The notes under the pieces were generated by a model. It saw only the letters and a list, made by a program, of their open reading frames with translations. It searched no databases and was not told the origin of the DNA. From NCBI GenBank assembly GCA_028279805.1, contig JANQMZ010000007.1, positions 450,001 to 482,000 of the forward strand: a DNA stretch of 32,000 nucleotides. The letters run 5' to 3'. The stretch comes from an archaeon. Its GTDB lineage: Archaea > Iainarchaeota > Iainarchaeia > Iainarchaeales > JANQMZ01. The translations under genes were made by a program, and so were the position numbers. Positions 2,457 to 13,263 of this stretch are shown piece after piece (within the stretch, counting starts at the first letter, position 1; every line of letters starts with the position of its first letter).

Positions 2457-3011
2457 ATGGTTTTAACATTTTCAAGCTATAAAGTTTTACAAAAAAATTC
2501 TTCCGCTCCCGACTTTACTTTGCCGGGTGCTGACGGAAAAAATTATTCTCTGGAAGATTTAAAAGGAAAAAAAGGTTTGCTCATAATTTTCATGTGCAAT
2601 CACTGCCCTTATGTTCAGCCTAAAATGAAATATTTTTCAGAATTAAGAAAAAATTATCCTGAATTGCAAATAGTTGGAATTAGTGCAAACGATGTTGAAC
2701 AATATCCTGAAGATAGTTTTGAAAAAATGAAAGAATATTCTCAAAAATATGATTTTGGTTTTCCTTACTTGTTTGATGAATCACAGGAAACAGCAAAAAA
2801 TTACGGGGCTGTTTGTACTCCGGATCCTTTTTTGTTTAACGAAAATTTAGAATTGGTTTATCATGGCAGGTTTGATGATTCTCCGCAGGGTTCACATGAA
2901 GAAGCTAATACAAGTGAAATGGAAGATGCAATAAAACAATTATTGGCAGGGGAAGAAATTACGGTTGAAACAAAACCATCACAGGGATGCAATATTAAAT
3001 GGAGTGAATGA
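2457..3011 (+). CDS. Thioredoxin-fold protein, AhpC/TSA 'PRX-like' family with CxxC
   Basis: 184 aa. APDFTLPGADGKNYSLEDLKGKKGLLIIFMCNHCPYV is the typical redoxin N-terminus with a CNHCPYV active-site motif. Confidence 0.8.
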   Translation: MVLTFSSYKVLQKNSSAPDFTLPGADGKNYSLEDLKGKKGLLIIFMCNHCPYVQPKMKYFSELRKNYPELQIVGISANDVEQYPEDSFEKMKEYSQKYDFGFPYLFDESQETAKNYGAVCTPDPFLFNENLELVYHGRFDDSPQGSHEEANTSEMEDAIKQLLAGEEITVETKPSQGCNIKWSE

Positions 3012-10398: not shown

Positions 10399-11475
10399 TT
10401 ATTTTTCCAGATGAATTGTCTGGGTCGGATAAGCAAATTCTAATTTTGATTTTTCAAATTCTTTTTTAATTTCAAAATTAATCTCACTTATAACATCAAA
10501 CTTGTTATCCAGATCTGTCACATAATAAATAAAAGTGATGTCCAAAGATGAATCGCCAAAACCTGAAAAGCGCGCATAAGAATCATTATCAACGCCTTTA
10601 TGTTTTTTTGCAATGCTTTTTAAAATCTGCAAAGCTTTTTCCATTTGCTTTGTGCTTGTGGAATAAACCAAGCCTAGTTTTGTTTTGACTCTTTTTTCCG
10701 GTTCGGATGAAATGTTTTTAATTATGGCATTTGCCAGTTTTGAATTTGGAACAACAATTAATCTTTTGTCAAAATCCTTAATGCGCGTATAACGCAGGCC
10801 AATTTCCTTAACTGTTCCCATTACGCCGGCTGCTTCAATTATATCCCCAACAACAAAAGGTCTTGAAGTGAATAAGCTTAAACCGCCGAATGCATCAGCA
10901 ATGGTTTCTTTTGCCGCAAAAGCAAATGCCAAACCTCCAATACCAAGTCCTGCTATAACCGCGGTTAAATCATAACCGAATGAAGAAAAAATTACAACCA
11001 ATGCCAGTACAATTACAATTGCTTTTGAAACTTTTGTTAAAATTGGAATTAACTGGTCATCAAGTTTTGAATCAGTTTTTTCTGTTAAAGGAACAACAAA
11101 AGCTTTGATTAGTTTGTCAATTCCCGCGACCAATGAAAGTGTTATGACAACAATTAAAATAACATTTAAAAGATTTAAAAAAATTGAATCAATTTCAGGT
11201 GAAAATGTTAAAAACTGGTAACCAAAAAATGCAAAAATTAAAATAACAAGAACAGGAATAGGCTTTTCAACAATTTCCAGTAAAATATCATCAATTTCAG
11301 ATTTTGTTTTGGCTGTTAATCTTTTGAGAATGTTATCAATAATAAAAACAGCAACTTTTCCCAGAATAAAACCAATCGCAATGAAAACCAAAAACACAAA
11401 ATATTGTTCCAAAGTGTTTCCAAAATACAACTGATTAAAACCGGGAAAATCAGGCAAATCAAACATGTTAAACAA
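10399..11475 (-). CDS. Small-conductance mechanosensitive channel (MscS family)
   Basis: N-terminal TM helices are followed by the MscS beta domain (LFTSRPFVVGDIIEAAGVMGTVKEIGLRYTRIKDFDKRLIVVPNSKL). Confidence 0.85.
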   Translation of the reverse strand: MFNMFDLPDFPGFNQLYFGNTLEQYFVFLVFIAIGFILGKVAVFIIDNILKRLTAKTKSEIDDILLEIVEKPIPVLVILIFAFFGYQFLTFSPEIDSIFLNLLNVILIVVITLSLVAGIDKLIKAFVVPLTEKTDSKLDDQLIPILTKVSKAIVIVLALVVIFSSFGYDLTAVIAGLGIGGLAFAFAAKETIADAFGGLSLFTSRPFVVGDIIEAAGVMGTVKEIGLRYTRIKDFDKRLIVVPNSKLANAIIKNISSEPEKRVKTKLGLVYSTSTKQMEKALQILKSIAKKHKGVDNDSYARFSGFGDSSLDITFIYYVTDLDNKFDVISEINFEIKKEFEKSKLEFAYPTQTIHLEK

Positions 11476-11571
11476 ACTGACTTAAAAAAGTTTAAAAATA
11501 GAGTTATAACGAAAAAAATAAAAATAATAAGAACTAAATAATATTAAAAAGTTAAAACACGGGGGTTTTAA

Positions 11572-12225
11572 ATGAGGCAAAAAAGGGTTTTAGCGTTATT
11601 GGCATTAATTTTAATAAGTACGATTTTTCCAACAGGAACTGCATTAAATTTTTGGGAAAATGATATTCCTGAGAATCCGGGTTTGCCGGTGCCAATGAGT
11701 GTTGAAAACCATTATCCAGATAATCTGATTCCAGAAAACCCAGGACTGCCTGAATTGCTTAACTCTGACGTTGATCTTGAACATTGTGATGCGCTGGAAA
11801 GAGGAAGAGACAAGTTAATATGTCTAATAAGAGAAGAGGCGTGGAAAGAATATCACGAAAAAGTGGAAGAATGCAGTAAAATAGAGGATGAAGACGAAAA
11901 ACAAAATTGTTTGGATGATGCCAGAACAGATCTTCTTTACGGTCTTGGCATGGCGGCTTGTTTTGAAAAGTCTGGTGATGAAGGTCAAAAATGCAGAGAC
12001 CGGGTAGAAAAAGAATATCAGGCTGAAAAAAACTATAACAACGCAAAAGCGGGGTGCAGGGCAAAATATGAAAAAGGTTCAGAGGAAAGAAAACAATGCC
12101 TGTTGAAAGCAAGAAATGATTATGTCTATGCAAAAGCAATTATTGAATGTGAAGACAAATATTCTGAAAATCGGGAAAAATTAGAAGAATGTAAGGATGC
12201 TGCACGGGACAGATGGCTAAGTTAA
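11572..12225 (+). CDS. Secreted protein with 2x (D/N)(D/L)IPENPGLP motif and five Cys-pair helical repeats
   Basis: Signal peptide MRQKRVLALLALILISTIFPTGTA. The SD-like GGGGGT lies upstream. ENDIPENPGLP and DNLIPENPGLPELLN are followed by 5 repeats of C-x10-13-C-x2-3-[AV]-[RKE]-x-[DE]-[YLW]. It has 10 Cys in total. Confidence 0.75.
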   Translation: MRQKRVLALLALILISTIFPTGTALNFWENDIPENPGLPVPMSVENHYPDNLIPENPGLPELLNSDVDLEHCDALERGRDKLICLIREEAWKEYHEKVEECSKIEDEDEKQNCLDDARTDLLYGLGMAACFEKSGDEGQKCRDRVEKEYQAEKNYNNAKAGCRAKYEKGSEERKQCLLKARNDYVYAKAIIECEDKYSENREKLEECKDAARDRWLS

Positions 12226-12263
12226 TAATTTTAAAATTATATTAAAAAAAGGAGGAATTGTTA

Positions 12264-12758
12264 ATGAAACGAAAAGGAGTTTTGGCAGCATTTTTAATGC
12301 TTATTTTCATAAGCTCATTTTTTATAACAGGAAACGCGTCCTTAACTGTCGGAAAAACAAAAAACATTGACTTTGAAGACAATTTGATTCCGGAGAATCC
12401 CCAGTTACCACAACTGCTTAACACATCAAACGGCTTGGTAATAGACATTGAGGATAATTTAATTCCCGAAAATCCAGGGCAACCACAAGTGTTGGATCAG
12501 AATTATACTCCGTCACAACAAAAAATTCTTAATGAATATCTTAGAAAAAAAGCAGCTTGTAAAAAAATAAAAGACGAGGACAAAAGAGAAAGATGCATTT
12601 ATGAAGCAAATATGTGGTTCGCTTACAAGATGGAAGTAGACAGCTGCAAGGTAAGATTCAAACACGATGCTGAAAAAAGACAGCAATGCATTGACAAAGC
12701 AAAAAGAGACTATGAAAGATGCCTGGAAAGTCATAAAGGCTGTCCCTGGGCAGGATAA
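12264..12758 (+). CDS. Secreted protein, paralog of 11572..12225 (2x ID-x-EDNLIPENPxxPQ-x-L motif and Cys-pair repeats)
   Basis: ATG 12264 is preferred because the SD GGAGGA (12251-12256) sits 7 nt upstream. Signal peptide MKRKGVLAAFLMLIFISSFFITGNA. It has two 19-aa motif copies and two Cys-pair repeats plus a C-terminal CLESHKGC. Confidence 0.75.
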   Translation: MKRKGVLAAFLMLIFISSFFITGNASLTVGKTKNIDFEDNLIPENPQLPQLLNTSNGLVIDIEDNLIPENPGQPQVLDQNYTPSQQKILNEYLRKKAACKKIKDEDKRERCIYEANMWFAYKMEVDSCKVRFKHDAEKRQQCIDKAKRDYERCLESHKGCPWAG

Positions 12759-12801
12759 CAAAAAAATTTAATGAAAAGCAGCCGGTTTAAAAAAAAACTG
12801 G

Positions 12802-12842
12802 TTTTGCTTTTTTCTATTTTTTTTTATTTTTCTTATTTTTTT
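12802..12842 (+). terminator. Oligo-T tract, probable archaeal transcription terminator
   Basis: TTTTGCTTTTTTCTATTTTTTTTTATTTTTCTTATTTTTTT lies downstream of the 12758 stop, preceded by an imperfect hairpin (GCAGCCGGTTT...AAACTGGTTTTGC). Confidence 0.5.
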
Positions 12843-12935
12843 CCCTGATTTTAAAGAAAAAAGGCGTTTTAGCAAGCTTTAAATTACTTTTGTTTGAAAA
12901 TTATTAGGTTATACTCTTTTAGAGTGGGGTCTGTC

Positions 12936-12950
12936 GTTTTTATAATATTT
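12936..12950 (+). promoter_or_regulatory. Candidate TATA box for the rpoH-rpoB-rpoA operon
   Basis: TTTTTATAATATTT lies about 85 nt upstream of the rpoH GTG. An SD-like GAGGG (13021-13025) sits 7 nt before the GTG. Confidence 0.35.
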
Positions 12951-13032
12951 TTCAAGAGCAATGGCTGTAAAAAAGCTGAAAAATGACGATACAGACGCCT
13001 GTGGCTAAAATGGTCAGAATGAGGGTTGTATT

Positions 13033-13263
13033 GTGGCATTAAAAGTTGAAGAGCATTTTTTGGTTCCAAAGCACACTATTTTACATCAAGAGGATGCTGA
13101 AAAAATTCTTCAACAACTCGGCTCCAAATTAATTCATTTGCCAAAAATCAAAAAAAATGACCCTGCGATTAAAAGTTTTAAAGCTAAAAAAGGAAGCGTT
13201 GTAAGAATTGAAAGAATAAGTAAAACTGCCGGCGAGTCAACTTATTACAGGAGAGTGGTTTAA
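13033..13263 (+). CDS. rpoH: DNA-directed RNA polymerase subunit H (Rpo5)
   Basis: HFLVPKHTIL..EDAEKIL..........LPKIKKNDPAIK....KKGSVVRIERISKTAGESTYYRRVV is the RpoH/Rpb5 C-domain pattern. It uses a GTG start and is adjacent to rpoB. Confidence 0.9.
   Translation: MALKVEEHFLVPKHTILHQEDAEKILQQLGSKLIHLPKIKKNDPAIKSFKAKKGSVVRIERISKTAGESTYYRRVV

Follow-up and report, generated by a model that had tools for sequence, protein, structure and literature searches.

Three predicted secreted paralogs with a selected peptide motif in a disordered tail and a cysteine-paired helical body in an archaeon of the Iainarchaeota

The window analysed here, a 32,000-nucleotide stretch of DNA from an archaeon of the Iainarchaeota, contains two tandem genes which sequence comparison confirms as true paralogs of a three-member family. 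The family is new and private to one lineage, and no match to its predicted fold was found in PDB or BFVD. The proteins are very probably built of a signal peptide, a disordered tail carrying two or three copies of a motif, represented by the peptide form HYEDNLIPENPGLPEVM, and a helical body with paired cysteines. Comparison of the coding sequences confirms that the motif peptide is under selection at the level of the protein.

Genes and genome

Positions outside the window are given on the contig that carries it (G000:C9, or C9 below), on which the window corresponds to G000:C9:450001-482000. The host genome is 876 kb with 34 % G+C, and the paralogs are located on its 853-kb contig. RNA polymerase subunit B' of the host is 62-72 % identical to that of metagenome-assembled genomes mostly labelled Candidatus Iainarchaeum or Diapherotrites, which places the host among the Iainarchaeota of the DPANN archaea, and among the genomes compared the host is the sole member of its family and genus. 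The genes, and an element following the tandem pair, are:

11572-12225, + strand: paralog 1 gene, 217 amino acids, 10 Cys; open reading frame with a GGGGG Shine-Dalgarno-like run before the ATG
12264-12758, + strand: paralog 2 gene, 164 amino acids, 6 Cys; open reading frame from ATG 12264
G000:C9:202974-203672, minus strand: paralog 3 gene, 232 amino acids, 10 Cys, three motif copies; found in a six-frame genome scan for PENP
12776-12850, + strand: hairpin and long T-runs after paralog 2, read from the sequence

The first-pass annotation had described two adjacent genes, each encoding a signal peptide followed by two motif copies, and its coordinates, peptides and DNA strings were all found to be exact. 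Paralog 3, which is located 258 kb from the tandem pair in the same genome, was missing from it and raises the total to seven motif copies. In the alignment paralog 3 is 47 % and paralog 2 39 % identical to paralog 1. Ribosome-binding sites are present before all three genes. The start of paralog 2 is most likely ATG 12264 and not TTG 12258, since AGGAGG (GGAGG at 12251-12255) lies 8 nt before this ATG and the independent Logan gene call is also of 164 amino acids. The paralog 1 gene was likewise called in the independent Logan assembly. The hairpin and T-runs downstream would likely act as the transcription stop of the tandem pair.

A 2,654-bp stretch was identical in the independent Logan assembly (run SRR20820740). 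As the composition of the tandem-pair locus is normal for this genome, the contig is 853 kb long and the second assembly is identical, the genes are regarded as native. A foreign origin of the pair was considered and rejected on the basis of this native composition and the lack of viral matches (PHROGs, BFVD).

Signal peptides

Two of the signal peptides lie in the window:

11572-11643, + strand: Sec-type signal peptide of paralog 1, residues 1-24 (MRQKR, a hydrophobic core and G-T-A, then L); sequence inspection, heuristic
12264-12338, + strand: signal peptide of paralog 2, residues 1-25 (...ITGNA, then S); sequence reading and alignment

The criteria for a Sec/signal peptidase I secretory signal were a basic n-region, a hydrophobic stretch (h-region) 10-17 residues long and, at -3 and -1, small residues; they were judged by inspection. 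All three paralogs carry such a signal: n-regions MRQKR, MKRKG and MKRG are followed by 14-17 hydrophobic residues and by G-T-A, G-N-A and G-T-A, respectively, and G22 and A24 of the G-x-A site are invariant in the alignment of the three. No Cys, and thus no lipobox (L-x-x-C with Cys at +1), was present in any of the three signal peptides; lipoboxes are present in other exported proteins of the same genome. The conserved n-, h- and c-regions and the shared G-x-A site support the earlier suggestion that the paralogs are secreted, and we infer from the sequences that all three are exported via a cleavable Sec signal peptide.

The motif of the tail

The motif copies, each recovered by a motif profile, are:

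11650-11697, + strand: motif copy 1 of paralog 1, residues 27-42, FWENDIPENPGLPVPM, a variant with a one-residue deletion; E 1e-11 per genome
11713-11760, + strand: motif copy 2 of paralog 1, residues 48-63, YPDNLIPENPGLPELL
12372-12419, + strand: motif copy 1 of paralog 2, residues 37-52, FEDNLIPENPQLPQLL
12447-12494, + strand: motif copy 2 of paralog 2, residues 62-77, IEDNLIPENPGQPQVL
Paralog 3: three motif copies, DNLIPEEPGLP, DNLIPENPGLP and DNLIPENPGLS

The seven copies, of 16-17 residues, have the consensus [FYI]-x-D-N-L-I-P-E-N-P-G-L-P-x-[VL]-[LMV], in which N, I, P, E and P are invariant, and they follow each other in the tails with a period of 21-25 residues. Each copy was found by the profile at E 1e-8 to 1e-10 against 13,686 open reading frames of at least 30 amino acids (six-frame, whole genome), and the next-best match among all six-frame reading frames of the genome was a spurious one of 37 amino acids at E 0.2.

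The substitution pattern was determined by the Nei-Gojobori method among the paralogs of this one genome. Between motif copies pS was 0.81, i.e. saturated, when pooled over 21 copy pairs, and between the paralogs it was 0.75-0.77, also saturated. The pN was 0.11 in the 11-codon motif core compared to 0.34-0.39 over the whole proteins, so that the core has been about threefold slower to change than the rest. As synonymous sites are saturated while pN in the motif is low, the duplications are old and the peptide has been held by protein-level selection. The proposal that selection on the protein, and not recent duplication of the DNA, maintains the peptide is thus borne out.

The tail that contains the motifs comprises 47-67 residues after the signal peptide. 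It has 7-9 prolines and a net charge of -10, -7 and -18 in paralogs 1, 2 and 3, respectively, and Lys and Arg are absent from the tails of paralogs 1 and 3. In the AlphaFold2 models of these two proteins the tails had pLDDT values of 26-46 and are thus predicted to be disordered.

The helical cysteine domain

The tail is followed by a domain with C-x10-13-C units:

11785-12222, + strand: helical domain of paralog 1 with five C-x10-13-C units (Cys 72/84, 101/113, 130/141, 162/176 and 193/207); AlphaFold model and unit statistics
12519-12755, + strand: shortened helical Cys domain of paralog 2 (Cys 99/111, 128/142 and 153/160); alignment and units

Paralogs 1 and 3 were each modelled with AlphaFold2 from the alignment of the three sequences. 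Apart from the tails, both models form five consecutive antiparallel helices with identical topology, in paralog 1 at residues 79-102, 107-130, 135-165, 171-196 and 201-216 with pLDDT of about 90-96. In both models the first Cys of a pair is located 1-3 residues before the end of a helix and the second 6-7 residues into the next one, and because of these positions at the helix ends each C-x10-13-C loop would close one helix-helix turn. The helical domain has 46 % charged residues.

The alignment gives further, indirect support to pairing. The Cys counts are even (10, 6 and 10), and cysteines have been gained or lost among the paralogs two neighbours at a time: an additional N-terminal pair is present in paralog 1 at the place where paralogs 2 and 3 carry a further motif copy, a short C-terminal C-x6-7-C pair is common to paralogs 2 and 3 and absent from paralog 1, and paralog 2 is without two central units found in the other two. 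The earlier count of five repeat units in paralog 1 and two in paralog 2 stands in so far as the units are real and two are complete in paralog 2; the units are, however, diverged (best unit pairs z 4-5.5 compared to shuffles, others not significant), and paralog 2 has the additional short C-terminal C-x6-C pair. The prediction of a helical Cys region agrees well with the models, in which helices have pLDDT above 90 and each Cys pair brackets a helix-helix turn. A description of the domain as disulfide-stapled helical hairpins is consistent with all evidence, and from the models the disulfides would be expected to form within the Cys units.

Search for related proteins

No orthologs of the three paralogs were found in the databases and genomes searched. 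Pfam, NCBIfam and PHROGs gave only sub-threshold noise with the paralogs, such as Peptidase_C9 (E 0.05), a head scaffolding protein (E 0.19) and the LIC10421 family (E 0.68). The CHCH family (PF06747) was also rejected: it scored 11.8 bits (E 0.29), below its cut-off of 27.2, and the spacing in the paralogs is C-x10-13-C across a turn instead of twin CX9C. LprI/DUF1311 (PF07007) gave no match at E up to 10 in the paralogs and none genome-wide. A sequence profile search of the PDB returned one designed minibinder at E 0.4 and nothing meaningful, and in Foldseek searches, of the PDB with both models and of BFVD with the model of paralog 3, no match was below E 0.07 and TM did not exceed about 0.3.

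Larger collections were searched with the same outcome. A word-indexed search of 5.8 billion protein clusters, with the full protein and with the tail alone, returned only the paralogs, and an exhaustive profile search of 1.84 billion representative proteins returned exactly the three; judged from the scores per copy, a foreign protein with two motif copies would score about 60 bits in the latter and be reported. When 185,579 species genomes and the metagenome contigs were scanned with back-translated patterns, no match was obtained, and a search with the full protein in 60 genomes of the same order was also negative. Across 195 genomes of this order the motif profile had four hits, at E values per genome of 0.004-0.1; chance alone would give more. 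Nothing relevant was found in full-text literature searches with the motif strings and for secreted Cys-rich proteins of DPANN archaea or Iainarchaeota.

Genomic neighbourhood

The tandem pair occupies the junction (window 10399-13263) between an MscS channel gene (10399-11475, minus strand) and the rpoH-rpoB operon, which begins at 13033. In about 32 of 110 related loci MscS and rpoH are likewise adjacent and divergent, with gaps of 180-1090 bp. No diverged counterpart of the paralogs was found upstream of rpoH in the 110 related loci, the gaps being empty or containing an unrelated gene, e.g. for an HD-domain protein. Only in the host genome is the gap, here about 1.56 kb, filled by the tandem pair. 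As the junction is conserved in relatives which do not have the pair, the pair appears to have been inserted there in this lineage only. In one relative an unrelated Cys-rich lipoprotein is encoded at the MscS-rpoH junction.

Paralog 3 lies directly downstream of, and on the same strand as, a gene for an M50 site-2 protease (C9:203773-205176), near ftsZ, and is also flanked by a gene for a coiled-coil protein. The two loci have no neighbours in common, and this includes any common enzyme or protease.

Role of the tail motif

The findings suggest a protein that would be exported by a cleavable Sec signal peptide with its conserved G-x-A site. The mature protein would then have two parts, an acidic, proline-containing, intrinsically disordered N-terminal tail with 2-3 motif copies and an all-alpha domain, rich in charged residues and made up of three to five antiparallel helices, in which one disulfide (C-x10-13-C) may close each helix-helix turn. 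Such a disulfide-clamped helical body could serve as a stable extracellular scaffold, and the tail motifs might dock the protein onto a partner, be it the cell's own envelope or the surface of a host or neighbour cell. We tentatively propose that the repeated motifs act as multivalent docking peptides tethering the scaffold to this partner. When a conserved linear motif lies in a disordered region, docking is the role assumed by default, and multivalent docking would be the most economical mechanism. No partner for the motif was suggested by the gene neighbourhood at either locus.

That the reading frames are not genes at all, and represent chance open frames in AT-rich DNA or an assembly artefact, would agree with the lack of homologs anywhere searched. 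This is, however, effectively refuted by three paralogs conserved as proteins with saturated synonymous sites, and with ribosome-binding sites at all three genes, confident structure models and an identical second assembly we consider its probability negligible. A proteolytic maturation site or a repeated propeptide, at which an exported protease would free the helical domain or short peptides, would be compatible with the position of the motif in a disordered tail just after the signal peptide, with the regular period of 21-25 residues and with the site-2 protease gene directly upstream of paralog 3 on the same strand. The RxLR and PEXEL motifs of eukaryotic parasites are cleaved during export, and precursors of repeated-core peptides provide a further analogy. 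M50 proteases, however, cut within membranes and not in soluble tails, no protease is common to both loci, and in the alignment the segments between the motifs do not show the conservation expected of a peptide product, which makes processing unlikely. Legumain-type processing at Asn was also considered, and the candidate peptidase was rejected as it had no Pfam support. A structural function, either as a Ca2+-binding or polyproline-type spacer stiffening an acidic stalk and keeping the helical domain at a distance from the cell, or by folding back onto the helical domain, is doubtful to about the same degree as processing: the Asp, Asn and Glu side chains and the prolines, counted as invariant, and the strongly acidic tail speak for it, but neither AlphaFold model contained a confident intramolecular docking or an ordered tail, and a plain spacer needs no invariant hydrophobic Leu-Ile-Pro and Gly-Leu-Pro.

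The first-pass annotation had suggested that the motif would suit a tag for processing, sorting, attachment or receptor binding, and had proposed to look for it in further secreted proteins and for its co-occurrence with a particular enzyme. A tag of general use in sorting, attachment or processing was not supported, because the motif is private to one paralog family and no enzyme is shared by the loci: it was found in no protein of the genome or of the public libraries other than the three paralogs and only at chance level in the 195 genomes of the order, and no enzyme co-occurs with it at both loci. This is the outcome which the first-pass annotation itself had named as speaking against its proposal: the motif occurs nowhere else, and the paralog family of one genome that carries it has no orthologs to show its conservation. 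A general sorting signal would be found on several unrelated cargo families and be conserved across related genomes, and the motif has neither property. It is therefore very unlikely that a dedicated sortase, glycosyltransferase or lipid-attaching enzyme reads the motif as a new N-terminal signal for sorting, attachment or modification. The strong conservation of the motif, its place beside the signal peptide and an archaeosortase-like protein encoded in the genome would fit such a signal, but signals of this type mark many unrelated cargo proteins and not one paralog family, no candidate enzyme gene adjoins either locus, and the motif offers neither Ser, Thr or Cys nor an N-x-S/T sequon for modification. 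The archaeosortase cargo signal (PGF-CTERM) consists of a C-terminal motif, a transmembrane helix and a basic tail. The conserved motif of the paralogs is N-terminal, and their C-termini (...ARDRWLS, ...KGCPWAG and ...KGEACLL) have no hydrophobic helix, so the proteins do not resemble archaeosortase/exosortase cargo of the PGF-, PEF- or PEP-CTERM types. The finding does not establish a new sorting pathway. The exosortase/archaeosortase family open reading frame of the genome (169 amino acids, C9:518180-518572) scored 29.3 bits with PF09721, above the cut-off.

Comparison with known systems

Multivalent docking remains our preferred, tentative reading. In architecture the nearest parallel is provided by secreted effectors of eukaryotic parasites. 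The RxLR-dEER proteins of oomycetes with helical WY/LWY units and the PEXEL proteins of Plasmodium have the same order of a signal peptide, a disordered motif region and a fast-diverging helical repeat body; the motif is similarly located about 5-40 residues after the cleavage site, and these effectors also form paralog families. The likeness is in layout and not in ancestry. There is no relationship in sequence or fold, and the paralogs are archaeal, have the motif duplicated or triplicated, number three instead of forming a large repertoire, and would have helices clamped by disulfides. By analogy the motif could be a new N-terminal host-targeting or processing signal, steering disulfide-clamped effectors onto or into a partner cell as RxLR and PEXEL do, but we regard this as quite improbable. 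If true, these proteins would be the first secreted effectors to be defined by a motif in an archaeal symbiont.

The helical body was compared with several other groups. CHCH (PF06747) and alpha-hairpinin/CS-alpha-alpha proteins are also small helical hairpins with disulfides between neighbouring helices, but they have two disulfides per hairpin, with CX9C or CX3C within the helices, whereas the paralogs have a single C-x10-13-C pair per turn. LprI/DUF1311 has a loosely similar pattern, being an exported, periplasmic domain of helices in which two Cys spaced by about 12 residues precede an acidic and aromatic helix; its Pfam model, however, matches nothing in the paralogs. The best Foldseek neighbours were the designed helical repeats DHR18 and DHR79 and up-down bundles, which likewise consist of consecutive antiparallel helices, but at E 0.25-1 and TM 0.22-0.29 these hits are no real match.

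DPANN archaea are believed to live in dependence on other cells, and very few of their exported proteins that might mediate contact have been characterised. The family provides a small and clean test case, in which a selected linear peptide in a disordered tail is combined with a compact helical fold and both parts could be produced by recombinant or synthetic means. The family occurs in a single uncultivated genome and has neither orthologs nor a known host, so that a result obtained with it would not generalise for now.

Disulfide formation in the host

The paralogs had been suggested as clients of the CcdA/thioredoxin system encoded 10 kb away. The CcdA (DsbD_TM) and thioredoxin genes at 285-1510 of the window were confirmed by Pfam. 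Such a pair is classically a reducing or isomerising pathway, supplying reducing power to the outside. The genome also encodes a membrane-anchored DsbA-like protein (C9:171653-172408; Pfam Thioredoxin_4, E 6e-32) whose active site is CPFC. This protein is a candidate extracytoplasmic disulfide oxidase and would be a more natural oxidant for the paralogs than CcdA/thioredoxin. Neither VKOR nor DsbB was detected in the genome. With an outward-facing DsbA-like CPFC protein and several Cys-rich exported proteins encoded in the genome, the formation of extracytoplasmic disulfides in this host is plausible.

A small exported thioredoxin-like protein with a WCPHC (CPHC) site is encoded at C9:106027-106413, and presumably resembles the thioredoxin domain which is fused to VKOR in other organisms. 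Three further exported proteins, unrelated to the paralog family, are very rich in Cys in a genome with a Cys fraction of only 0.9 %: 13 Cys in 113 amino acids with a lipobox (C9:419223-419564), 16 in 176 (C9:429738-430268) and 39 in 536 with a lipobox (C9:645803-647413). A peroxiredoxin (AhpC/TSA) is encoded at 2457-3011 of the window.
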